A stretch of 10,753 nucleotides of DNA from assembly GCF_035285525.1 (NCBI RefSeq), contig NZ_JAYKGW010000185.1:1-10753 (forward strand), read 5' to 3'. The position numbers were made by a program, and so were the translations under genes. This document shows positions 1 to 10,753 of the stretch, in pieces. Under the pieces are notes generated by a model that saw nothing but the letters and a program-made list of their open reading frames with translations, was not told the origin of the DNA and did no database searches. The stretch's first letter is position 1; each line of letters opens with the position of its first letter. This DNA is from Okeania sp. Lineage in GTDB: Bacteria > Cyanobacteriota > Cyanobacteriia > Cyanobacteriales > Microcoleaceae.

Positions 1-205
1 TTATGTTTTCTATTTGATTATTCTCAATAATATTAGAAATATTTTTCCTAAAAGTTTTACAGGCATAAAAATTAGCATCAATTGCCCAAACCAACTTAAA
101 TCCTGCCTTATGAAATGGTAAATCCATGCCTCCACAACCAGAAAATAAAGATATGATTTTTGGCGCTTGATTCCAATTTATCTTTTTTAAACGTTCAATC
201 AACAT
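1..205 (-). CDS. DNA (cytosine-5)-methyltransferase, N-terminal part only; the gene continues past the left window edge
   Basis: Reverse-complement translation from the ATG at 205..203 gives MLIERLKKINWNQAPKIISLFSGCGGMDLPFHKAGFKLVWAIDANFYACKTFRKNISNIIENNQIENI. LFSGCGGMDLPF..AGF is the FxGxG AdoMet-binding motif I of C5 methyltransferases, and the usual AIDxN..A..TF..N block follows. The frame stays open to the window edge, which explains its absence from the ORF track. Confidence 0.75.
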   Translation of the reverse strand, partial: MLIERLKKINWNQAPKIISLFSGCGGMDLPFHKAGFKLVWAIDANFYACKTFRKNISNIIENNQIENI

Positions 206-502
206 TTTATTCAAAAATAATACAACCAGATACAGGGGATTCTACTTTGGTGAAGTACAACCTACGCGAGTAAGATGCACAGTTCAAAAAAATCGCACTG
301 AGAACATTTAATTATTAATATCTGTACTTCTTATACTTAGAATCTACTGTATAGAAACCAATATAAATTAGAGTTTAATTTTCTGATATTAAATTGTTAA
401 TTTCCCTCAAATATACAGAAAATATACTAATTTTTCCAATTATAAACATTTATAGACAAGATTGCTGATCTAAGATATATTATATTAATAAAGTTAATAA
501 AA

Positions 503-536
503 AGATGAAGCCTTGTGACTTGCTCTTTGTCAAAAT
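503..536 (+). repeat. Isolated 34-nt fragment homologous to an internal part of the downstream kinase gene (1179..1212)
   Basis: agatgaagccttgtgacttgctctttgtcaaaat at 503..536 matches agatgaagggttgcgacttgctctttgtcaacat at 1179..1212 at 30 of 34 positions, on the same strand. Confidence 0.6.
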
Positions 537-710
537 TTATTTCTATAGCGACCGGGAATGATTTATAAGATATTTAATAACTATTAAAAGAAATCAAAAT
601 CTTTCTATATTCTCACTCCTGACTGCTGATTCCTAATTACCAAGAAAATCTCACAAATGAAATATGATTGTTATAGATTTAATCTGTAAATCCTAATTAT
701 CAATTATCCA

Positions 711-805
711 TTAAAAATTATGGCATGGCTTCCAGGAAAAAAAATTTATGGCGATGTAGCTACCGCTAGGCTCCGCCAACGCTAAATTATGCAAAAAGAA
801 TTAGG
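711..805 (+). pseudogene. Relic duplicate of the kinase 5' end (leader, ATG and the first ~20 codons), interrupted by a 24-nt insertion and ending at an early stop
   Basis: 711..755 plus 780..805 aligns with 973..1043 at 65 of 71 positions (ttaaaaattatggcatggcttccaggaaaaaaaattta...aaaaagaattagg). The ATG at 720 reads MAWLPGKKIYGD-[VATARLRQ]-R-stop, compared with MAWLPGKKIYGNRYIIQKELGKGG in the real gene. Confidence 0.75.
756..779 (+). mobile_element. 24-nt micro-insertion of the small-dispersed-repeat type, splitting a HIP1 octamer
   Basis: gtagctaccgctaggctccgccaa is present in the relic copy and absent from the paralogous position in the real kinase 5' end. Its flanks are ggcgat and cgct, which rejoin as GCGATCGC. 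Related copies occur at 1715..1739 (reverse orientation) and 5493..5520. Confidence 0.7.
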
Positions 806-845
806 AAAAATTAGTAGAATATATATGTGAATGGTAAGATTTTAT

Positions 846-899
846 TGTAGGGGTTTGGCTTCCAAATCCCTGCTTGGGTTTGGAGACCAAACCCCTACA
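846..899. repeat. Long palindromic hairpin element
   Basis: tgtaggggtttgg at 846..858 is perfectly complementary to ccaaacccctaca at 887..899. An inner pair, tccaaa (861..866) with tttgga (880..885), extends the stem. It lies between the relic and the real kinase start. Confidence 0.7.
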
Positions 900-981
900 G
901 TTTTCTCTAACAAATCATTGAGGATAACTATAGTAATCCCCATTACAAAAAAACTTCTAACTTCTGATTTAGTTAAAAATT

Positions 982-1785
982 ATGGCATGGCTTCCAGGAA
1001 AAAAAATTTACGGGAATCGTTACATTATTCAAAAAGAATTAGGCAAGGGTGGCTATAGTATTACTTATATTGCTAAAACCAATAAAGGTGAACGAGTAGT
1101 TATTAAAACTCTAAAAGATGAAATTTTTATCTCTAAAAATCTCACAAATTTTCTAGAAAAATATCAACAAGATTTTCGAGATGAAGGGTTGCGACTTGCT
1201 CTTTGTCAACATCCAAATATTGTACAGATAAAAAATGTTTTTACTGAAGGAAAACATCCCTGTATTGTGATGGAATATGTGGTAGGAGAAGATTTAGAAA
1301 AATTAGTTAAAAGAAAGGGGAAATTATCAGAAAATGAGGCATTAATTTACATTAGACAAATAGGAGAAGCTTTAACAGTAATCCACTCTAAAGGTTTATT
1401 ACATCGGGATGTTAAACCACAAAATATTATTGTCCGTAATCTTAACAATAAACCCGAAGCAGTTTTGATTGATTTTGGTATTGCTCGTGAGTTTATTCCA
1501 GATGTGACTTTGACTCAAACTGTGGCTGGTTCAAATGGCTTTTCTCCCATTGAACAATATGCAGAAAAAGCCAAGCGAGGAGAATTTACCGATGTTTATT
1601 CTTTAGCATCAACTCTTTATTATTTACTAACTGCTGAAGTTCCCATTCCAGCACCAGCAAGAGCAGCAAGAATAGCTCTTAACTTACCAAAACAATTTAA
1701 TCCGAAAATTAGCGTTGGCGGAGCAAGTGCGGCAGCTATATCGCTGTCAAGAAGCTATTGTTCAAGGTATGGCATTTCATGCTGA
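982..1785 (+). CDS. Hanks-type Ser/Thr protein kinase catalytic domain. This is the 5' portion of a kinase-GUN4 gene, and the frame is lost at about 1715 because of a 25-nt insertion.
   Basis: Kinase motifs present: G-loop LGKGGYS, VVIKTLK lysine, HRDVKPQNIIV catalytic loop, DFGIAREF, GFSPIEQ. After PKIS (about 1711) the translation turns into low-complexity sequence (VGGASAAAISLSRSYCSRYGISC). The expected kinase C-lobe end (QEAIVQGMAFHAEERPQSVAEWL) continues in the +1 frame. Confidence 0.9.
   Translation: MAWLPGKKIYGNRYIIQKELGKGGYSITYIAKTNKGERVVIKTLKDEIFISKNLTNFLEKYQQDFRDEGLRLALCQHPNIVQIKNVFTEGKHPCIVMEYVVGEDLEKLVKRKGKLSENEALIYIRQIGEALTVIHSKGLLHRDVKPQNIIVRNLNNKPEAVLIDFGIAREFIPDVTLTQTVAGSNGFSPIEQYAEKAKRGEFTDVYSLASTLYYLLTAEVPIPAPARAARIALNLPKQFNPKISVGGASAAAISLSRSYCSRYGISC
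1715..1739 (-). mobile_element. 25-nt micro-insertion of the same family as 756..779, in reverse orientation, disrupting the kinase gene
   Basis: ttggcggagcaagtgcggcagctat resembles ttggcggagcctagcggtagctac, the reverse complement of 756..779, with one extra internal base. Its flanks agcg and atcgct rejoin as aGCGATCGCt (HIP1). Deleting 1715..1739 joins agc gat cgc tgt caa gaa, giving NPKISDRCQEAIVQGMAFHAEERPQSV in a single frame. Confidence 0.75.
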
Positions 1786-2956
1786 AGAACGCCCCCAGTC
1801 AGTAGCAGAATGGTTATCTTATTTTACAGAATTAAAAAGTCAAAATTTAAAAGTCAAAAGTAATGCTTTCTTTACTGAAAATTTTGACAATACAATAATT
1901 TCCCAAGATTATTTGACATCTGAAAATTTGACGAAATCTTTTAATCAAACAGAAGTTGATTATAGAAAATTAGAGAATCTTTTAGCTGCCCGAAAATGGC
2001 AAAAAGCAGATGCAGAAACTAGAGAAATAATGCTGAAAATTTTAGACCGAGAAACTAGAGAATGGGGAACAAAAGCAGAAATAGAAAAATTTCCCTGCAA
2101 AGACTTAAGTATTATCGATAAACTTTGGATTAAATATAGTAATGGTAGGTTTGGTTTCACCGTTCAAAAAATAATTTGGCAGAATATTGGTGGTAAACCT
2201 AATGCTGACCATAATATTTATATCAGGTTTGCTGAACAGATAGGATGGCGACTAAATGAAAATTGGTTATCTTGGTTTGATTTTAATTTTAATATTAATG
2301 CACCAGTCGGACATTTGCCTTGTGGATTAGGGCGAGGAGTAATAGATTTTGGTATTGCTTTTTTATCTCGAATAGAAATTTGCGGACTTGAGGAACCGAA
2401 AAATATTCCTCTTAATATTGGCAAAGTAAAAATAGACTATTCTCGTCTAAGAGATTTTTTGTCAGCTCGAAATTTTCGAGAAGCCGATCAAGAAACTGTC
2501 GCTTTAATGTTGCAAGTAGTTGGCAAAAATAAAGACGAAAAATTGACTCTTTTTGATATAGAAACTTTTCCTTGTTTGGAGCTGGAGAAAATTAATCAAC
2601 TTTGGCTAAATTATTCTCAAGGGCGTTTTGGTTTTACTGTACAAAAATCTATTTATTTTCATGTAGAAAAAAGTATTGAGCAGAGGTTCGGGAAAAATCG
2701 TAAATATCACAAAATGATTTGGCAAAATTTTAGTGATGTTGTGGGATGGCAAGTGGCAGGTAAGATAAAATATTATAGTGAGTTTGATTTTAGTTTAAAT
2801 GCACCTTTCGGTCATTTACCTGTTTCATGGTGTGTCAAATTTAAAGTGGAAAAGTTTGGGGTAGGAGTCTGGCGAGAAACTTTTTTTAATCGTGTGAATA
2901 ATTGTTTGATTAATACAGGAAAAATCTATCTTAATGAAGTAGAAAAAAATCAATAA
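1715..2956 (+). CDS. 3' portion of the same kinase gene: end of the kinase C-lobe, a linker, and two tandem GUN4 domains
   Basis: Repeat 1 (about 1955..2380): YRKLENLLAARKWQKADAETREIMLKI...FPCKDLSIIDKLWIKYSNGRFGFTVQKIIW...IGWR...NAPVGHLP. Repeat 2 (about 2429..2899): YSRLRDFLSARNFREADQETVALMLQV...FPCLELEKINQLWLNYSQGRFGFTVQKSIY...VGWQ...NAPFGHLP. Both match the GUN4 signature W-x-x-AD, FPC-x-DL, LW-x-x-S-x-GRFGF-x-VQ, GHLP. The M at 1715 in the track is a TTG inside the insertion and is not a real start. Confidence 0.85.
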   Translation: MAEQVRQLYRCQEAIVQGMAFHAEERPQSVAEWLSYFTELKSQNLKVKSNAFFTENFDNTIISQDYLTSENLTKSFNQTEVDYRKLENLLAARKWQKADAETREIMLKILDRETREWGTKAEIEKFPCKDLSIIDKLWIKYSNGRFGFTVQKIIWQNIGGKPNADHNIYIRFAEQIGWRLNENWLSWFDFNFNINAPVGHLPCGLGRGVIDFGIAFLSRIEICGLEEPKNIPLNIGKVKIDYSRLRDFLSARNFREADQETVALMLQVVGKNKDEKLTLFDIETFPCLELEKINQLWLNYSQGRFGFTVQKSIYFHVEKSIEQRFGKNRKYHKMIWQNFSDVVGWQVAGKIKYYSEFDFSLNAPFGHLPVSWCVKFKVEKFGVGVWRETFFNRVNNCLINTGKIYLNEVEKNQ

Positions 2957-2958
2957 AA

Positions 2959-3482
2959 AGTCGAATTAAAATTGTTAAAGGTGATATTGCTCAACAGAAA
3001 GTTGATGCTATTGTTAATTCTACAGACCGCGCTCTTTCTTCTGGTTCAACGATATCTTATTCTATTCATAAAATAGCTGGATTAGAACTTAGAGAAGCTT
3101 GTCTAAGATTACATGCTTGTCAACATGGGGAAGCAAAAATTACTAATGGTTATAATTTATTTGCTAAGTGGGTTATTCATACAGTTGCTGCTAGATGGCA
3201 AGGTGGAAGTTTAGGAGATAGAATACACTGATAAAATGTTATCAAAATAGTTTAGCTTTGGCAGAAAAATATGCTGTTAAAACTATTGCTTTTCCTCCTA
3301 TTACTACTGGTGCTTTATGTTTTCCGGTGGAAGTAGCGGCAAGAATAGCTATTACTGAAGCAATTGAGTTTTTGTTAGAATGTAAGTCTATTGAACAGGT
3401 GATTTTTGTTTGCTTTGAGGTTCGGGTTTATGAACAATATTTAGAGGTTTTTTCTGAAATATATAGATATATAGAGGGTTAA
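2959..3482 (+). pseudogene. Macro-domain (Appr-1''-p processing / ADP-ribose-binding family) gene remnant, with no start codon, a frameshift and degenerate motifs
   Basis: Frame 1, about 2959..3231: KSRIKIVKGDIAQQKVDAIVNSTDRALSSGSTISYSIHKIAGLELREACLRLHACQHGEAKITNGYNLFAKWVIHTVAARWQGGSLGDRIH-stop. Frame 3, 3222..3482: NTLIKCYQNSLALAEKYAVKTIAFPPITTGALCFPVEVAARIAITEAIEFLLECKSIEQVIFVCF. Together these follow the macro-domain layout GDIT..VDAIVNAAN..GGGV.GAIH..AG..L..C...GEA.IT.G..L.AK.VIHTVGP.W.GG....L..CY.NSL.LA......IAFP.ISTG. There is no ATG, GTG or TTG between the in-frame stop at 2935 and the domain. NAAN has become NSTD and GGGV has become SGST. Confidence 0.75.
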
Positions 3483-3730
3483 ATTTTCTGAGTGTTGCGT
3501 ATAGAGCAAGAGTAAATACATTTTGTGAAGCACCTCGCTATAGAGGGTGAATGATGGAATTTTCTGATTATGGCTCTATACTTTCTGGTTCATACATTTT
3601 GTGAAGCATCCCAATATGGAGGATGAATGGTGGAATTTTCTGATTATGGCTCTATACTTTCTGGTTTATATATTTTGTGAAGCACCCCGCTATGGAGAAT
3701 GAATGGCGCAATTTTCTCATTATGTTGGTC
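3482..3730. repeat. Tandem repeat, 76-bp unit, about 3.3 copies
   Basis: aattttct(g/c)attatgg... recurs at 3482, 3558, 3634 and 3710, an exact 76-nt spacing. a(c/t)attttgtgaagca recurs at 3518, 3594 and 3670. The array begins on the stop codon of the macro remnant. Confidence 0.85.
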
Positions 3731-3999
3731 AATATTGCACGAACCTTATATTTCTGAAGTTTTCGGGGAGTTGGGATGGGGGATTCCATTTAATATCCCT
3801 ATAATCTTATGTTGTATAATATAACACCCTCCTTGGTTTAGCACTATAAGTCTCTTATTGACAGGGTTCCAGGGTGTTTAAGATAGGGTGAATATCTGCC
3901 AAATTCCATCTAATCCTACCTGTTATACGGGCTGAAGGCTTAAACTGGTCAGTAATGCAGCCCATTTAGAAGTTTTTGTATATCACGCACTCAGCCGTG

Positions 4000-4028
4000 T
4001 TGACACTTAATTACTTTAGTGCTATCCT
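4000..4028 (+). promoter_or_regulatory. Candidate sigma70-type promoter (TTGACA, 17-nt spacer, TATCCT) about 190 nt upstream of the DUF924 gene
   Basis: ttgaca at 4000..4005, a 17-nt spacer, and tatcct at 4023..4028. This is motif resemblance only. Cyanobacterial promoters often lack a -35 element, so the match may be fortuitous. Confidence 0.25.
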
Positions 4029-4224
4029 ACACCACAAGGATTTTTCGTTAAGGGATTAGTCCTTCGCCTTAGTATCTTAGGCAGCTAAGCGCTTTCTAGT
4101 TAATAGCTAGAGATATTCCTGGTGAGAATTCTATGAGCTTCCGGAAGCACTGCTTTTGATAGGGTATATCATTAAGCTATTCTTGATTTTTTTGCCAATA
4201 TAAAACATACTCACAGCCCTAATC

Positions 4225-5061
4225 ATGATTCTCCGAATAAAAGTCACATTTTTCAGTTTTATCTCGTTCCTTCTTGTCTTATTTTGGGTAGCTAGTCCTG
4301 TAGCATTAGCTTTTACTGAACCTATCCTCATTACCGACCCAACTAACACGGTTGATCTCAAAGATTGTCTAAAGCCAAACCCAGATCAACAACAGCATTT
4401 TTTGGAGAAGACTGATCCAAAAGCCATAGAAATTCTTCGCTTTTGGTATGAGCAATGGGATAATGATATAGTTAAAGGAGGAAAAGGAGTCTACAATAGT
4501 AAGTGGTTTCCTCATGGTCCTGCGGGCGCTGCAGGTAGTCAGGAAGTTGATAAGCAAATCCGCGAAAAGTTCTCAAAAACATTTGACGCGGCTGTCGAGG
4601 GCAAGCTGACATGGGAAATCGATACAAATCCCTATGAAAACTTAGCCTATATTTTACTGATCGATCAATTTTCCCGGAACATGTTTCGAGGCACTAACAA
4701 AGCATACAAATATGACAACCTAGGCTTAGCGGCGGCGGACAAAAACCTGCAAGGTTGCTTCTTTAACTATTATTTTACTGGCTACCAAAAGCTGTTTGTT
4801 GTGTATCCGTTCATGCACGATGAAAATCTTGCCTCCCAAAAGCGATCATTAGAGTTTCTCAAGATAATTAACGAAGATGAGGAACATCGATATGAGTTTC
4901 TGAATGCATTTCAAAAGGCATTCGAGCATTACCAAATGATTTTTATGTTTGACCGTTTTCCGCATCGAAATAGTCGCCGTGGCCGTCCGAATAAAGATAA
5001 TGAACGGTCTTACTTGGAAAAAATGCAGACTCTGGGGTTTGTGGATGGCTCCAAATGGTAA
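4225..5061 (+). CDS. DUF924 family protein with an N-terminal signal peptide or membrane anchor
   Basis: LAYILLIDQFSRNMFRGTNKAYKYDNLGLAAA, YPFMHDENLASQ and FDRFPHRNSRRGRPNKDNERSYL match the conserved DUF924 blocks (LDQFxRNxFRG, PxxHSE, F(G/D)RFPHRN..LGR.ST.EE..(F/Y)L). The N-terminus MILRIKVTFFSFISFLLVLFWVASPVALAFTEP is hydrophobic and has an ALA-like cleavage motif. Confidence 0.85.
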   Translation: MILRIKVTFFSFISFLLVLFWVASPVALAFTEPILITDPTNTVDLKDCLKPNPDQQQHFLEKTDPKAIEILRFWYEQWDNDIVKGGKGVYNSKWFPHGPAGAAGSQEVDKQIREKFSKTFDAAVEGKLTWEIDTNPYENLAYILLIDQFSRNMFRGTNKAYKYDNLGLAAADKNLQGCFFNYYFTGYQKLFVVYPFMHDENLASQKRSLEFLKIINEDEEHRYEFLNAFQKAFEHYQMIFMFDRFPHRNSRRGRPNKDNERSYLEKMQTLGFVDGSKW

Positions 5062-5452
5062 TCGTTCCCAACTCTTGGTAAACCTCTAAGTCCTACTGCA
5101 ATCAGAGCATCTTGCTTTGATACGTTATGCTGTCTCTAACGCATCAGAAATATATTTGCTTTTTCATCCTAACCCTGTGCTGCACTCGAGGGCTTGACGA
5201 GCGCTTGGTTCTTACAAAAAAAATCCATAGCCGTCGGTGAGCACAAATGTTAGGCAATAGCTTTGTGATCTAGTATATATCGATGCCAACCCACTGAAGA
5301 CCACCGTCTTCTTGCTGTCACAATCGCCTCATTATTCATATTCAAAGCCAAAACTGTCATCACCAAGCCAGAAGCAGTGGCCAAAGTCCATCGTAATTTT
5401 CTCACAGTGGGGGCAGATACTGTTGCTCCATATGCAGTAGAAAATGGGACAA

Positions 5453-5608
5453 TTACAGCGATTTTTATTTCAGAAAACTACAGTAGGGACGTATGGCTAA
5501 CGCCAAGCTCCGCTAACGCTGGGCGACATGTAACGCATTTTTGTTATGCAACGTCCCTACAAAATTTTGGTTATGGCGATTAGTTTATCTATTTGAAAAC
5601 CACTGTAA
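5453..5608 (+). mobile_element. MITE-like element, copy L, with terminal inverted repeats and a central hairpin; carries a nested ~40-nt insertion
   Basis: The termini ttacagcgattttt (5453..) and aaaaccactgtaa (..5608) are inverted repeats. The central stem pairs gtagggacgt (5483..5492) with acgtccctac (5551..5560). Apart from the nested insert, it aligns along its whole length with the reverse complement of 8187..8302. Confidence 0.75.
5493..5534 (+). mobile_element. Nested ~40-nt insertion inside MITE copy L, containing a third copy of the micro-element core
   Basis: Copy L reads gtagggacgt-[atggctaacgccaagctccgctaacgctgggcgacatgtaac]-gcatttttg, where copy R (reverse complement) reads gtagggacgt-ta-gcatttttg. 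The core tggctaacgccaagctccgctaacgct matches tagctaccgctaggctccgccaacgct (757..783) at 22 of 27 positions. Confidence 0.65.
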
Positions 5609-5629
5609 TCATAACCTTTATTTCTAAAA

Positions 5630-6376
5630 TCAACAATGAAAAATGATGCTAGTTAGTTGATTTTCGACTTCATTCATATAATCTGTTAATCCTGTACTCA
5701 CACCTCTTTTTTGCAAAGTTTCCAAACTTGTTTCTTCCCAACATTTCCGTTCTCTTTCAAATTCTCCTCTTGTGAGTTTTTCCAGCACTATTTTAGGATT
5801 TCTCATCCGTTTAGTTTCTTCTTTTGAATTAGAACATAATCTATGAGATTCCTCACAAGGATCAAACTTTAATTCACTTTTAATCTCTTCCAGAATTTTT
5901 GCTTCTGATTTATCCAGCGGAATAAAACCATTCAAAACCCATGCTTCTCGGTTTCGGTTTGCCATTCCCATAACAATTTTAAATTGGCGATCGCTATATT
6001 CGGAGCGCACTTTTTCGATACTTTCTTTTCGCTCAGGTTGATCATCTAAATCGCGGATAAAGACAACTGCTTTAATTTGTCGTTGTCGCGTTTTTTGCAG
6101 ACAAGAGACAAATTTCAGAATTTTTTTTGCTGCTGCACCATCAGCACCTTTAGCACCACGAGTTTTAGGTATCTTAACACCGGAGTTCTCAATTATACGT
6201 TTAATATCCTTCCAACAGGAATATTCTATATTTTCTTCTAAACCGCTCCACTGAAAAAAGTCTTGAAGTTGTTCTTCTTCTAACCAATCGACTTTTTCCA
6301 GTAAAAGGCGATCGCCTAATTTAGTAGCAGTTCGTGCATCAGCTTTACTTTCTACAATCACAATACATTCATTCAT
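5630..6376 (-). CDS. Small TOPRIM-like protein (resembling DUF4276, RloB or DUF4435), a putative nuclease partner of the upstream ATPase
   Basis: 248 aa counted from the ATG at 6376. The track's longer start at 6391 is a TTG. A GAGGA Shine-Dalgarno sequence (6385..6389) lies 8 nt upstream of this ATG, and the ATG overlaps the ATPase stop as ATGAATGA. The motif order fits a TOPRIM-like fold: an early beta-strand ending in Glu (CIVIVESKAD), an acidic DxD after a hydrophobic strand (AVVFIRDLDDQ, nt 6041..6055), and a later Glu-Trp (NREAWVLNGF). The family assignment is a by-eye inference. Confidence 0.6.
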   Translation of the reverse strand: MNECIVIVESKADARTATKLGDRLLLEKVDWLEEEQLQDFFQWSGLEENIEYSCWKDIKRIIENSGVKIPKTRGAKGADGAAAKKILKFVSCLQKTRQRQIKAVVFIRDLDDQPERKESIEKVRSEYSDRQFKIVMGMANRNREAWVLNGFIPLDKSEAKILEEIKSELKFDPCEESHRLCSNSKEETKRMRNPKIVLEKLTRGEFERERKCWEETSLETLQKRGVSTGLTDYMNEVENQLTSIIFHC

Positions 6377-7499
6377 TTGTTTTTTCCTCAATTACCCAAT
6401 CTTCACCTTCAGCATCCCAAAATTCTCCAGTAGTTAAAGTTTGTTTTGCCCATTCAACATCTGGATGTTCATCTAATCTTTTGCAACAAGTCAATCCTGA
6501 ATTATTGTTAGTTAAAACATGAACTTGAGAGGGTGTAAGCTCATCAATAATATAAGGAGAATGAGTTGAAAAAATAATTTGTAAATTAGGATTCACTTTA
6601 ATAATTTCCTTAAAAACAGACATTAATTCTCGTTGTGCTTGAGGATTAAGTCCTTGCTCAACATCATCTAATAATACTAAATTAGGTGCATTTGGATTCA
6701 TTAAAACTGTCAATAAACCAAGAGCAAGAATTGTTCCTTCACTAATAGCATGGGCAGGAATTTTATCTCCACTCTTCATATCGAAAACTATTTCTTGTCC
6801 TGCCATCTCTTGACTTTCTTGGTAAGAAATAGATTTTCCATCTACTTCTATTAAACGTTGGCGATCGACTGCAACTTTAGCTCGTCTGATTCCAAACCTT
6901 TTGACATCGGGAACAACTTGTCGCAGCATTTCTTGCAAAGATTGAAATTTATCTGGTGCTTCGTTGCGCAAGTCATCTAAGTAAGGTGCTATCCCGGAAC
7001 CATTAAACTCAATTTGTGGTGTCACTGCTTCACTATAAGCAACTGTAGCAAGATTAGCAGCTATCAATTTCAAGTAAACTAAATATCTCCAATACTCTAT
7101 TACTTCAGAAGATACTAATGAGATTTGTCCATCTGAACGCTTATTTCCTTTGGGGTTTGAAAATAATATTGCCCGCCAACCAGAATCATCCTTTTTTCGC
7201 CAATCAAGAGTTAATTTACAGTTTTGTATAGGGTTATCTTCCAAAAAAATATTTACAGTAACAGATATCTGATTTTCTCCCTTTCTTGCTATAATTTCTG
7301 GGGAATTTTCATGTTTAAAAACGTCTTGAAATAATGAATTATTTTCCTGTGCAAGTCTGCTCAAATAATGTAATGCTTGTAAAACAGATGTTTTACCAGA
7401 ACCATTAGGTCCTACGAGTGCGTGCAGTCGGGAATCATCAAATTCAAGGTTTGTTTCTGGATGACTTTTAAAGTTATCTAGTTTTATTGTTTTTAACAT
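6369..7499 (-). CDS. ABC/SMC-like AAA_21/AAA_15-type ATPase (376 aa)
   Basis: The N-terminus MLKTIKLDNFKSH...LHALVGPNGSGKTSVLQAL contains Walker A (nt 7386..7412). Also present are a signature-like AISEGTILALGLL, Walker B LVLLDDVEQGLNP (nt 6657..6680 for LVLLDDVE) and the H-loop IIFSTHSPYIIDE. This layout is typical of the defence-associated AAA_21 ATPases (AriA, PtuA, AbiLi and the OLD N-terminal domain). Confidence 0.85.
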   Translation of the reverse strand: MLKTIKLDNFKSHPETNLEFDDSRLHALVGPNGSGKTSVLQALHYLSRLAQENNSLFQDVFKHENSPEIIARKGENQISVTVNIFLEDNPIQNCKLTLDWRKKDDSGWRAILFSNPKGNKRSDGQISLVSSEVIEYWRYLVYLKLIAANLATVAYSEAVTPQIEFNGSGIAPYLDDLRNEAPDKFQSLQEMLRQVVPDVKRFGIRRAKVAVDRQRLIEVDGKSISYQESQEMAGQEIVFDMKSGDKIPAHAISEGTILALGLLTVLMNPNAPNLVLLDDVEQGLNPQAQRELMSVFKEIIKVNPNLQIIFSTHSPYIIDELTPSQVHVLTNNNSGLTCCKRLDEHPDVEWAKQTLTTGEFWDAEGEDWVIEEKTNE

Positions 7500-7924
7500 T
7501 CAATTACTAACATCCTTATCATTGATAATTTCATAATTTAATTAAGCTAGTTATTCCCAAGTTAATATTATTTATACATTAAATTAACAGCAACAGAACA
7601 AGATTTATTAATACCTAAATAACTGTTAGGAGAAAGCCAATAATTTGAAATTATTCAAGAAAATGGGAAAATTATTATCACCAGCATTAAAAAAAATACT
7701 TTATATTTAAAATTTAGGTGAAAATTATGTAGAATATGATGTATAAAATAGCAAAAATATTTGAAGATATTAAGTTTGTTATTTGAGACTTATTTCTGAA
7801 TAAATCTATTAAGTTGTTTAACTAATAAATTTACTGTTTGGGAACGATTATTATTAACAGTATCGGGTTGATTATATTACAATACGGTTCAGTTAATATA
7901 GAATCCGGTTATATGCTTATCTTA

Positions 7925-8048
7925 TCTACACCAAGGAAGGTAGTAGAAGTATCCCCCCAACCCCCCTTTGAAAGGGGGGCAGAAGAGGAAAAATTAACTG
8001 AGAAGGTACAAAGTTTTTTATCAACTAATTATCTTGATTCTATTCTAG
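7925..8048 (-). repeat. Dispersed repeat with a C6-TTTSAAA-G6 hairpin, in inverted orientation relative to 8299..8423 and 8459..8557
   Basis: The reverse complement of atccccccaacccccctttgaaagggggg (7951..7979) is cccccctttcaaaggggggttggggggat, which matches 8392..8421 and 8527..8556. The flanks also align: the reverse complement reads caagataattagttgataaaaaactttgtaccttctc, against cttgataatcagcgataaaa..aaaacctttatccctctaaaac. Confidence 0.65.
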
Positions 8049-8186
8049 AATAAGACGAAAACTCATAAGATATAGCAATGTGCGCTGGCATGTTTACAAA
8101 TTGCAGGAAGTGTCCAATAGCTTCAAGTCTTATATTATAGGCAATTTATTCTCCCTGTTGCCTGCGCGCAGCGCTATATGGAACCA

Positions 8187-8302
8187 TTACAGCGCTTTTC
8201 AAATGGATGAACTATACCGCCATAACCAACATCTTGTAGGGACGTTGCATAACAAAAATGCTAACGTCCCTACTATGGTTTATTGAAATGAAAACCGCTG
8301 TA
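8187..8302 (-). mobile_element. MITE-like element, copy R, inverted relative to copy L and lacking the nested insertion
   Basis: The termini are ttacagcgctttt (8187..) and aaaaccgctgta (..8302). The central stem pairs gtagggacgt (8236..8245) with acgtccctac (8264..8273). Its reverse complement aligns with 5453..5608 at roughly 85 percent identity by eye. Confidence 0.75.
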
Positions 8303-8423
8303 TATCATATCTTGATAATCAGCGATAAAACTCCGTTCCGCTTACGCGATCAAAAACCTTTATCCCTCTAAAACAATATTCCCTCATGCTTCCCCCCTTT
8401 CAAAGGGGGGTTAGGGGGGATTT
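8299..8423 (+). repeat. Dispersed repeat unit with a C6/G6 hairpin, copy 1, carrying an extra ~21-nt segment
   Basis: tgtatatcatatcttgataatcagcgataaaa[ctccgttccgcttacgcgatc]aaaaacctttatccctctaaaacaatattccctc..cccccctttcaaaggggggttaggggggatt. The bracketed segment is absent from copy 2. Confidence 0.7.
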
Positions 8424-8458
8424 ATTCTACAGTCTAACGATTCAAAATTAAAACTATT

Positions 8459-8557
8459 GTATATCATGTCCGGATAATCAGTGATAAAAAACCTTTATCC
8501 CTTCAAAACAATATTCCCTCCTATTTCCCCCCTTTCAAAGGGGGGTTAGGGGGGATT
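8459..8557 (+). repeat. Dispersed repeat unit with a C6/G6 hairpin, copy 2
   Basis: tgtatatcatgtccggataatcagtgataaaaaacctttatcccttcaaaacaatattccctc..cccccctttcaaaggggggttaggggggatt is a direct repeat of copy 1. It ends about 70 nt before the groEL stop codon. Confidence 0.7.
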
Positions 8558-8627
8558 TCCTTTACTGAACCCTATTGTTAAATTAGGCTAACTTTAAAAT
8601 ATTAGACTTTGGGTTGGTAGGCAAAAA

Positions 8628-10301
8628 TTACATCATTCCCATACCAGGCATTCCCATGCCACCCATACCGCCCATACCGCCCATGCCGCCCATGCCACCA
8701 TCCATATCAGGCATAGCAGCTTTTTTCTCAGGCTTCTCAACAACTACAGCTTCAGTAGTTAATACCATACCAGCAATGGAACCAGCATTTTGCAACGCGG
8801 AACGTACCACCATCGCCGGATCGAGAATACCAGCAGCAATCATATCTTCATATTCGCCAGTTATCGCATTGTAACCAACACTGAAATCAGTAGAACGTAC
8901 TTTCTCAACAACTACGGAACCTTCTGCACCAGAGTTATCAGCAATTTGACGCAAAGGAGCTTCCAAAGCACGCTTCACAATATTCGCACCAATTTGCTCT
9001 TCTTCAGTTAAGCTACCTTTCAACTCCTCCACTTTAGAAGACAAATGAATTAAAGTAGTACCACCACCAGGTACAATACCTTCTTCCACAGCAGCTTTGG
9101 TTGCATTCAAAGCATCCTCAATGCGTAACTTCCGGTCTTTGAGTTCAGTTTCTGTAGCAGCACCAACTTTGATGACTGCAACCCCACCAGCTAATTTAGC
9201 GATACGCTCCTGTAATTTCTCTTTGTCGTAATCAGAGTCAGTCTCTTCAAGCTGTTTGCGAATTTGACCGATCCGCTTTTTGACTTCCTCTGCTGTTTCT
9301 CCACCAGCAACAATAGTAGTGTTGTCTTTGTTAATAGTAATTTTGCGACCAACACCCATCATATCTAAGTCTGCCATCTCTAGACTCAGACCAACTTCTT
9401 CAGAAATTAGTTGACCACCAGTCAGAATAGCAATATCTTGCAGCATAGCTTTCCGGCGATCACCAAAACCAGGAGCTTTCACAGCAGCAACATTTAACAC
9501 ACCTCTTGCTTTATTCACCACCAAAGTTGCTAAAGCTTCTCCTTCAATATCCTCAGCAATAATTAATAAAGCTTGACCAGCGCGAGCCACCTTTTCTAAT
9601 ACCGCTACCAAATCCTGAATAGAAGAAATTTTCTTATCAGTAATTAAGATGCGAGCATTTTCAAACTCCACAACCAACCGCTCTTGATCGGTAACAAAAT
9701 AAGGAGACAAATAACCACGATCGATTTGCATTCCTTCCACAACATCCAACTCTGTAGACAGAGACTTAGACTCTTCCACAGTGATGACTCCATCCTTGGT
9801 AACTTTTTCCATTGCTTCAGAAATCATTTTTCCGACTTCTGCATCACCACCTGCGGAAACTGTAGCAACTTGAGCGATCGCCTCTCCTTCTACTGGTTTA
9901 GCAGCTGTTTCTATTTCTGCAACTAAGTGATTAATAGTTTTTTCAATCCCTTTACGCACTGCCACTGGGTTCGCACCAGCAGCAACGTTTTTGAGACCTT
10001 CCTTAATCATAGATTGAGCTAAAACTGTAGCAGTAGTTGTGCCATCTCCAGCAATATCCTTAGTTTTGGATGCTACTTCTTGAATTAATCTAGCACCTGT
10101 ATTTTCTAGAGGATCTTCTAACTCAATATCCTTTGCTACGGTAATCCCATCATTAACGATTTGGGGAGCGCCAAATTTTTTCTCTAATAATACGTTTCTA
10201 CCTTTTGGACCCATTGTTATTCTGACCGCATCAGCTAAGGTATTGATACCTTTTTCTAGAGCGCGTCTGGATTTATCATCAAATTCTACAATTTTGGCCA
10301 T
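8628..10301 (-). CDS. groEL: Chaperonin GroEL (60 kDa chaperonin), monocistronic cpn60-2 type with no groES immediately upstream
   Basis: [41 protein letters not shown]..., [12 protein letters not shown], and a C-terminal GGM-repeat tail ([24 protein letters not shown]). The start is set at the ATG at 10301, which has an AGGA ribosome-binding site. The track's extra 8 residues (METIRKKD) begin at a TTG. No groES ORF lies between this gene and the window end. Confidence 0.97.
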
Positions 10302-10333
10302 ATCTTTTTTCCTAATTGTTTCCAACTAAAAAT

Positions 10334-10360
10334 TTAGCACTCTATACAATCGAGTGCTAG
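10334..10360. promoter_or_regulatory. CIRCE operator (HrcA binding site) in the groEL leader
   Basis: TTAGCACTC-tatacaatc-GAGTGCTAg matches the consensus TTAGCACTC-N9-GAGTGCTAA at 17 of 18 positions. It sits 32 nt upstream of the groEL ATG. Confidence 0.9.
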
Positions 10361-10380
10361 TTGGTGGAAACCGTACATGG

Positions 10381-10753
10381 GATAATGAATAATTAATAAT
10401 GAATAATTAGGGTTTAGGGTTTTTAGATAATATCAAATCCGGTAGTATCCGTTTAAATAAAGAATGTGGAAAATAATGAATAATTAATAATTAGGATTTT
10501 TGTATAATATCAAATCTGGTAGTATCCGTTTAAATAAAGAATGTGAGAAGTAATGAATAATTAATAATGAATAATTAATAATTAGGGTTTTTGGATAATA
10601 TTAAATCTGGTAGTATCAGTTTAACAAAGAATGTGAGAAGTAATGAATAATTAGGGTTTAGGGTTTTTAGATAATATCAAATCCGGTAGTATCCGTTTAA
10701 ATAAAGAATGTGAGAAGTAATGAATAATTAATAATGAATAATTAATAATTAGG
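10381..10753. repeat. Variable-length tandem array (77-nt and 90-nt units, at least 4.5 copies) upstream of groEL, running off the right window edge
   Basis: The core atcaaatc(c/t)ggtagtatc(c/a)gtttaa(a/c)aaagaatgtg(a/g)gaa recurs, with ggtagtat at 10441, 10518, 10608 and 10685 (spacings 77, 90 and 77). The units differ in the number of internal aatgaataattaataa and tagggttt sub-repeats. Confidence 0.85.

Follow-up and report, generated by a model that had tools for sequence, protein, structure and literature searches.

The window analysed here, a stretch of 10,753 nt from Okeania sp. (assembly GCF_035285525.1, contig NZ_JAYKGW010000185.1, positions 1 to 10,753), carries a gene encoding a Ser/Thr protein kinase joined to two GUN4 domains and a Macro domain, and in this gene a 25-nt sequence, TTGGCGGAGCAAGTGCGGCAGCTAT, splits a copy of the palindromic octamer HIP1 (GCGATCGC) at positions 1715..1739 (+). 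This 25-mer is very probably a genuine copy of a non-autonomous dispersed repeat, 24 or 25 nt long, that inserts at HIP1. It corresponds to the commonest variant of a subfamily recognised by an internal AAGT, and is flanked by ...AAAATTAGCG upstream and ATCGCTGTCAAG... downstream, so that the order is GCG, insert, ATCGC. Removal of the 25 nt in silico restored AGCGATCGCT, with HIP1 rebuilt exactly, and fused the kinase frame (start at 982, frame 1, ending at 1785 when the insert is present) with the GUN4 frame (frame 2, stop at 2956) into a single open reading frame (ORF), 982..2956, of 649 codons (...NPKISDRCQEAIVQGMAFHAEERPQSVAEWL...). The first-pass annotation of this DNA, made from the letters alone, had given the coordinates of the insert, the +1 offset between both frames and the 649-codon fusion, all of them confirmed by our reading of the sequence; it had, however, placed the insertion at the centre of HIP1, while the actual point is GCG^ATCGC, one base away from the centre of the palindrome. 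The window contains a second copy of the repeat, and the features that concern both are the following:

1709..1745, + strand: occupied target TTAGCG / element / ATCGCT, with HIP1 GCGATCGC split between bases 3 and 4 and the preferred TT upstream
756..779, - strand: 24-nt copy of the CTA subfamily, T..C variant; TTGGCGGAGCCTAGCGGTAGCTAC is the reverse complement of 756..779
711..830, + strand: decayed partial duplicate of the 5' end of the kinase gene (MAWLPGKKIYGDR*), from repeat comparison within the window and orthologue N-termini
HIP1 target sequence: TTAGCGATCGCT, preferred context TTAGCG^ATCGCT

The 24-nt copy is bordered by GCGAT (751-755) and CGC (780-782), which amounts to GCG/ATCGC in the element's own orientation; its wider flanks are AGCG and ATCGCC, relative to which it is oriented like the 25-nt copy, and both copies match the context TTAGCG^ATCGC. 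They differ by CTA versus AAGT and at two further positions; thus, the earlier description of the 25-mer as the reverse complement of 756..779 plus one extra base was right about the family and wrong about the single base. The HIP1 that houses the 24-nt copy is the N-terminal one (GGCGATCGCT), present in all orthologues and retained in the duplicate 711..830. In this upstream fragment it is kept as the codons GDR, and it has been lost from the main kinase gene (GNR). Within the duplicate, positions 711-751 are 98% identical to 973-1013, and 780-808 matches 1018-1046; positions 503-536 match 1179-1212, out of order, as a further decayed fragment of the kinase copy upstream of the real gene.

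The comparison with orthologues showed that the site was empty before the insertion. The closest homologues of the repaired protein came from Dapis, Okeania, and Hydrocoleum (70-86% identity, 820-890 residues), not from Nostocales, and share the architecture of a kinase, two GUN4 domains, and a Macro domain; Okeania and Dapis belong to the Microcoleaceae, Oscillatoriales. When the DNA of six orthologues was compared at the insertion site, the 25 nt were absent from all six, giving one filled site (the window) and six empty ones. Locus L002, with 88% nucleotide identity over 2.5 kb, reads AAAATTAGCGATCGCTTTCAAG, the block missing from it in a global alignment being exactly 1715..1739, and L132 reads ...AGCGATCGCATTC. 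These two orthologues carry an intact AGCGATCGC at the insertion spot, and in the other four the octamer has decayed. A neighbour-joining tree of the kinase region placed L132 as the outgroup to the window and all the other orthologues; because both L002 and this outgroup carry an intact HIP1, the sequences indicate that the empty HIP1 is ancestral and that the element entered in the lineage of the window. A scan of JGI metagenomes yielded more orthologues and no contig of the same species. Mobility was also seen elsewhere, as the orthologues of a hypothetical gene in L027 and L113 differ by the presence or absence of a copy. The proposal that a micro-insertion of the small dispersed repeat (SDR) type had entered a HIP1 was therefore borne out, by these empty sites and by the copies at split GCGATCGC described below.

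The family was searched for with the pattern TTGGCGGAGCN{2,7}GCGGNAGCTA, without any HIP1 term and with one genome per species. At least 119 stretches were listed, and the copy numbers and taxonomic limits given here are those of samples (788 kb of loci). About ten of the listed stretches were chance matches in unrelated phyla, near the expectation for 19 fixed bases. At least 110 were cyanobacterial, 108 of 110 being labelled Okeania, Dapis, Trichodesmium, Microcoleaceae, or cyanobacterial metagenome-assembled genomes (MAGs) without a family name, and the other two being MAGs named Sphaerospermopsis (Nostocales) and Crocosphaera. These cyanobacterial loci contained at least 139 copies: 77 of 24 nt (TTGGCGGAGC-CTA-GCGG[C/T]AGCTA[T/C]), 61 of 25 nt (TTGGCGGAGC-AAGT-GCGG[C/T]AGCTA[T/C]), and a single one of 27 nt, in T. 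erythraeum IMS101. At least 64 of the 24-mers were identical to each other, as were at least 39 of the 25-mers, the latter being the same as that of the window and found in Okeania, Dapis, and related genomes. Among the matches listed there were 125 distinct flank contexts, so most copies are independent. The copies are of full length, with about one truncated among about 125 listed, and 5' truncation of the type left by long interspersed nuclear elements was not seen among them. The element begins with TTGGCG and ends with AGCTAT, without terminal inverted repeats, and its removal restores the octamer exactly, so there is no target duplication. Its predicted folding energy was no better than that of shuffled sequences on either strand, with or without flanks (z about 0), which led us to discard a structured or hairpin-forming element.

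Association with HIP1 was not built into this search, since the scan pattern contained no HIP1; nevertheless, 109 of the 139 listed copies were flanked exactly by GCG/ATCGC, and most of the rest were one base off. None of the 139 was in the reverse orientation. On the 5' side of the element, T was found at position -5 in 62% and at -6 in 51% of the occupied sites (the two bases before the A preceding GCG), the corresponding values being 30-32% for the 347 intact HIP1 sites of these loci and 22-24% on the opposite side; this TT asymmetry can explain a fixed orientation on a palindromic target.

A further seven of the listed copies lie outside HIP1, in the loop of a hairpin CGCTCTCC[CG^NA]GGGGAGCG, and this second target was found both filled and empty:

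Second-target hairpin sequence: CTCCCGAAGGGGAG
Filled with a 24-nt copy: L003, L025, L047, L065, L084
Filled with a 25-nt copy: L076, L110
Empty: L012(-)5889, L048(-)5005, L093(+)7531, L097(-)6416

The empty versions read CCCGCAGGGG, CCCGAAGGGG, and CCCCTTGGGG. The host of this hairpin is a conserved non-coding repeat of about 275 nt, which ends in ...GTTGTCGCGTAAGCGCAACGTCGGGAGTATGTCAAT, carries the hairpin close to its 5' end and exists in two subtypes with compensatory changes. Both length classes were present in both host subtypes, which implies that this position of the loop was hit repeatedly. The hairpin is predicted by RNAalifold, with base pairs that show hardly any variation, and the reported covariation lies in the neighbouring 5' helix of the host; no Rfam family was found for the host element.

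Several observations concern the copies themselves. Some of them lie within tandem arrays in which the whole unit is repeated (L057, period of 56 nt and 7 copies; L052, 97 nt; L064, 100 nt; L014, L030, and L054, about 330 nt), so part of the copy number is due to passive amplification. Two variable 3' positions co-vary, GGCAGCTAT versus GGTAGCTAC, the latter holding the perfect palindrome GTAGCTAC, and both 3' variants were found in both length classes, as if 5' and 3' parts recombined or four master forms existed. Other inserts of 22-25 nt in split HIP1 sites (L016, L019, L020, L096, L100, L101) share only the 5' handle TTNGCGGAGC; they include TTCGCGGAGCGTTGCGT[A/C]AGCAGT (24 nt), TTCGCGGAGCGTTGCGTTACTCTGT (25 nt), TTTGCGGAGCATCCCGCAGGAA (22 nt), and TTAGCGGAGCTTTGCGGAGCGCA (23 nt), and suggest a superfamily in which this handle is conserved and the 3' part varies. 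In the window itself, positions 5519-5497 (-) read AGCG/TTAGCGGAGCTTGGCGTTAGCC..., the 5' handle of the family after GCG with no recognisable 3' end or ATCGC, which is either a rearranged relative or a chance match. Outside the main clade, a single 24-nt copy was found in the 681-kb contig L055 (MAG named Sphaerospermopsis sp. SIO1G1), with degenerate flanks GTG/ATCAC, and another single 24-nt copy in L056 (MAG named Crocosphaera); transfer, mis-binning, or a wider distribution could account for both. The family was in none of the plasmids of PLSDB, where no cyanobacterial match appeared, and a viral scan gave three chance-like matches without HIP1 flanks, which spoke against a phage as the vector.

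The gene that received the 25-nt copy is longer than the 649 codons to which the earlier annotation had limited it, although the fused kinase-GUN4 frame it described is correct: the full gene has about 820 codons for the kinase, both GUN4 domains, and the Macro domain, and is interrupted by three lesions.

982..1714, + strand: piece 1, codons 1-244 of the Ser/Thr kinase domain, frame 1 (Pkinase E = 4e-41)
1740..2942, + strand: piece 2, end of the kinase domain, linker, and two GUN4 domains, frame 2
2943..2949, + strand: A-run with 7 A versus 8 A in L002, a 1-nt deletion that changes frame 2 to frame 1 and creates TAA at 2954-2956
2944..3219, + strand: piece 3, N-terminal part of the Macro domain (KKSIKSRIKIVKGDIAQQKVDAIVNSTDRA...), frame 1
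3220..3482, + strand: second 1-nt deletion and piece 4, C-terminal part of the Macro domain, frame 0, stop at 3480-3482

With the insert present, the frame of piece 1 continues to a stop at 1783-1785. The insert falls at codon 245, within the catalytic domain, and the match to the kinase model ends at residue 263 once the protein is repaired, versus 223-234 in the truncated one. The HIP1 hit is a conserved site that encodes Ser-Asp-Arg near the end of this domain, and the insert, being of the 25-nt form, shifts the frame by +1. The Macro domain is present but split by the second 1-nt deletion, at about 3221, where one A is missing with respect to L002 (GATAAGAAT to GATAGAAT, frame 1 to 0). Repair of the three lesions gave 819 open codons with Pkinase, both GUN4, and Macro domains and no nonsense substitution among them. 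The ratio of nonsynonymous to synonymous substitution rates (dN/dS) of the repaired gene versus its orthologues was 0.25-0.33, compared with 0.28-0.40 among intact orthologues, and relaxed selection on the broken gene was not detected by this comparison. Because of the normal dN/dS and the lack of nonsense substitutions, all three lesions look recent. A gene with three frame-breaking lesions is most likely a young pseudogene, judging from its reading frames.

Of the 125 contexts among the matches listed, 117 were in non-genic DNA and eight looked genic. The latter comprised seven of 73 independent 24-nt copies and one of 51 25-nt copies. The seven 24-nt copies keep the ORFs open, in dnaN, an RND transporter, a Na/H exchanger-Usp protein, an IS630 transposase, and a hypothetical gene, and the only genic 25-nt copy listed (L088) breaks a kinase-like ORF, a trend in line with the frame argument of the first-pass annotation, though not a significant one. 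The in-frame dnaN copies of L041 (Okeania sp. SIO2B3) and L099 (Dapis sp. BLCC M126) occupy one and the same site and add the residues LAEPSGSY; this is an old insertion that an essential gene has tolerated. The first-pass annotation had reasoned that a 24-nt copy would have added eight codons in frame to the kinase gene, making the 25-nt length the inactivating feature. This does not hold for the frame in question (AGC G/AT CGC), in which the 24-nt form would read AGC GTT GGC GGA GCC TAG, with an in-frame stop; such copies are tolerated in other frames, as in dnaN. The family is also relevant to annotation: real proteins, the beta clamp of DNA polymerase III among them, gain eight residues from 24-nt copies, and 25-nt copies cause frameshifts resembling assembly errors.

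Different explanations of the broken gene were weighed. That the frameshift is itself an artefact, the true insert being of 24 nt or absent, is barely credible, even though the stretch is represented by a single metagenomic contig, with no independent assembly of it or of the broken ORFs on record, and an A-run is where one of the other frameshifts is found. The 25-nt and 24-nt forms differ by AAGT versus CTA, which is not a homopolymer slip, and the 25-nt form is a discrete subfamily, seen at least 61 times in independently sequenced genomes from several laboratories and at least 39 times with the very sequence of the window; in addition, the other genes of the contig are intact, and 2,428 nt of it are 100% identical to an independent Logan contig. 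An assembly error in the 25-nt insert, which the earlier annotation had raised as a 1-nt miscount, is therefore unlikely. A much more serious contender, to which we would give a little less than an even chance, is that the gene was already dead when the element arrived and that the 25-nt copy is a passenger in a pseudogene instead of the inactivating lesion. The two additional 1-nt deletions, at about 2943 and about 3221, agree with this, and they leave the claim that the 25-nt insert is what inactivated the gene unsupported; the surroundings look degraded (the decayed 5'-end duplicate 711-830 and the fragment 503-536), 117 of the 125 independent listed copies are non-genic, and the 25-nt copies listed are almost never found in open genes. 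On the other side, the 819 repaired codons without nonsense substitution and the normal dN/dS point to three recent lesions, any of which may have come first, and the insert alone removes the last kinase subdomain and everything downstream.

Another reading is a split of the gene into separately made kinase and GUN4 proteins, or a translational bypass of the insert. The element does supply in-frame TTG and GTG codons and a GGAG, the ORF 1715..2956 begins at its first codon with GGAG-CAA-GTG inside, and the pieces still look selected; however, the cut lies inside the catalytic domain and leaves a kinase piece without its last conserved subdomain, two more frameshifts follow downstream, the spacing from GGAG to GTG is only 3 nt, and no relative has the split architecture, all of which makes fission or recoding very improbable. 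Returning to the reading of a young pseudogene hit by a genuine repeat copy, some points weigh against it or limit its reach. The label of pseudogene is derived from the frameshifts only, and the two 1-nt deletions could be assembly errors, especially that from A8 to A7. The intact-like dN/dS and the 819 codons open after repair bear no mark of prolonged decay. Enrichment of 24-nt copies in genes is not significant (Fisher p = 0.14), and the counts and taxonomic limits come from samples, with at least 119 stretches listed.

Regarding the mechanism, insertion is site-specific, orientation-specific, duplication-free, and of full length, and the cargo is much too short to code for anything. Tentatively, and at clearly less than an even chance, we suggest that a trans-acting, strand-specific nuclease or transferase may cut GC-rich palindromes or hairpins at their apex and join a small module there. 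Such an enzyme would cut after CG, at GCG^ATCGC in HIP1 and CTCCCG^NAGGGGAG in the second target, and would join a pre-formed or templated module of 22-27 nt with the conserved 5' handle TTNGCGGAGC. The apex is proposed because both targets are GC-rich inverted repeats that are cut there, directly after CG. Speaking against this scheme, the apex rule comes from only two types of target, no hairpin is predicted in the element, and no enzyme was identified in this analysis.

The main mechanistic rival is an RNA-templated route, in which a transcript with HIP1 halves would pair with a nicked HIP1 (AUCGC with GCGAT-3'), be reverse-transcribed, and be sealed. The insertion point would be, by inferred geometry, the bottom-strand cut of a GCGAT^CGC-type cleavage, the copies are nearly invariant across genera, as if derived from a few masters, and genomes of the Trichodesmium clade are described as rich in reverse transcriptases (PMC4143802). 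Against it, there were no 5'-truncated copies among those listed, a reverse transcriptase associated with the family was not identified, the stretch that would pair does not include the asymmetric TT, and the second target shares no HIP1 halves; we regard this route as improbable. Going one step further than the apex-cutting enzyme, and more doubtful than it, there may be an undescribed insertion system that reads two features of its target, an asymmetric TT flank and the apex of a GC-rich palindrome or hairpin, and inserts handle-sharing modules of 22-27 nt, HIP1 being the main landing pad at least in Nostocaceae and in the distant Trichodesmium clade. If this were true, its micro-cargo would fall far below the length of any element known to bring its own recognition ends, and HIP1 would gain a concrete molecular partner.

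Comparison with known systems places the family closest to the SDRs. It lacks the terminal inverted repeats and target-site duplication of miniature inverted-repeat transposable elements and classical insertion sequences. Elements of the IS200/IS605 group and their non-autonomous derivatives move by a single-strand "peel and paste" reaction catalysed by an HUH/Y1 transposase, insert 3' of a short specific sequence in one orientation, without target duplication or terminal inverted repeats, and need subterminal hairpins bound by TnpA at both ends, with a length of at least about 100-200 nt. The family resembles them by inserting always at TTAGCG^ in one orientation and without duplication; however, it is of 24-25 nt, without a predicted hairpin or a linked transposase, and the hairpin is supplied by the target instead of by the element. 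As the defining hairpins and size are missing, it works like IS200/IS605 at most and is not a member. REP and REPIN sequences, mobilised by RAYT transposases, are likewise non-autonomous and short (about 20-40 nt), with many copies that lie mostly outside genes (PMC3116915, which names SDRs as a possible relative); REPs are imperfect palindromes that mostly come as inverted doublets, and splitting of a specific octamer is not known for them, whereas the present family has no palindrome in the element, single copies, and a strict target.

The closest parallel is SDR5 of Nostoc punctiforme and other Nostocaceae, which inserts between bases 3 and 4 of HIP1 (Elhai et al. 2008, Genome Res 18:1484, as cited in Elhai 2015, PMC4390886). 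Targeting of HIP1, which the first-pass annotation had detected correctly but could not relate to anything known, is thus already published. As far as these sources go, SDR5 and the present family are both very short repeats with many near-identical copies, precise insertion at HIP1 3/4 and no obvious target duplication, found in genes and between genes, with filled and empty sites among the class features observed here. They differ in that SDR5 is of 21 nt, with function unknown according to a 2026 preprint (bioRxiv 10.64898/2026.06.24.733823), and is described as confined to Nostocaceae, no SDR having been found outside them according to Xu et al. 2018 (PMC5861425), whereas this family is of 24/25 nt (rarely 22-27) and belongs to Microcoleaceae; neither the length and sequence of SDR5 nor a distribution in Nostocaceae was seen among the matches listed, in which the MAG named Sphaerospermopsis (Nostocales) accounts for a single copy. 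Thus, the earlier assignment to the SDR class known from Nostoc and Anabaena stands for the behaviour and has to be changed for the lineage, which is the Okeania/Dapis/Trichodesmium group. As a stand-in for the SDR5 consensus, split-HIP1 inserts were sought in 200 kb of the N. punctiforme plasmid pNPUN01. Those found follow the pattern TAGC..GCCG..AGGC, have a length of 18-21 nt and presumably are SDR5; members of the TTGGCGGAGC family were absent from this stretch. The separation from SDR5 is based on descriptions of it in later papers and on these inserts. Homology with the Nostoc inserts was considered for shared AGC/GCCGC-like motifs and rejected as unconvincing, with similar partial matches in both orientations.

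A literature search with TTGGCGGAGC returned unrelated primers only, and no description of this repeat family was found in literature on HIP1 or on repeats in Trichodesmium and Okeania. What appears to be new is the sequence family, its Okeania/Dapis/Trichodesmium lineage, its two length classes, the TT flank asymmetry, and the hairpin-loop target. The window alone gives an ordinary result, one young pseudogene. In a wider context, the movement of SDRs has been an open question since 2008 and the function of HIP1 since the 1990s, and a second, unrelated sequence family now behaves like SDR5 in a lineage where the literature consulted reports none; this provides comparative handles, namely the genes common to SDR-bearing lineages, the strand used, and the structure cut.

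Some other repeats and neighbouring elements were detected. A search of the window for Rfam-type RNA families gave no known family, and a HEARO RNA was found in L110 at 6573-6785. In Dapis sp. BLCC M172 (L122:1366-2641), an IS605-type orfB/TnpB gene lies directly upstream of an intact kinase-GUN4-Macro orthologue. A long hairpin repeat, TGTAGGGGTTTGG...CCAAACCCCTACA, occupies positions 828-931 of the window and occurs also in L047, L010, and L024; in L047, it lies near the non-coding repeat that hosts the second target. It probably represents a further small dispersed element. Finally, the window contains three 76-nt tandem units at 3516-3743, CCCCCCTTTCAAAGGGGGG-containing repeats in direct and inverted copies at 7953-8565, and 77-nt AT-rich tandem units at 10376-10753, at the end of the contig.

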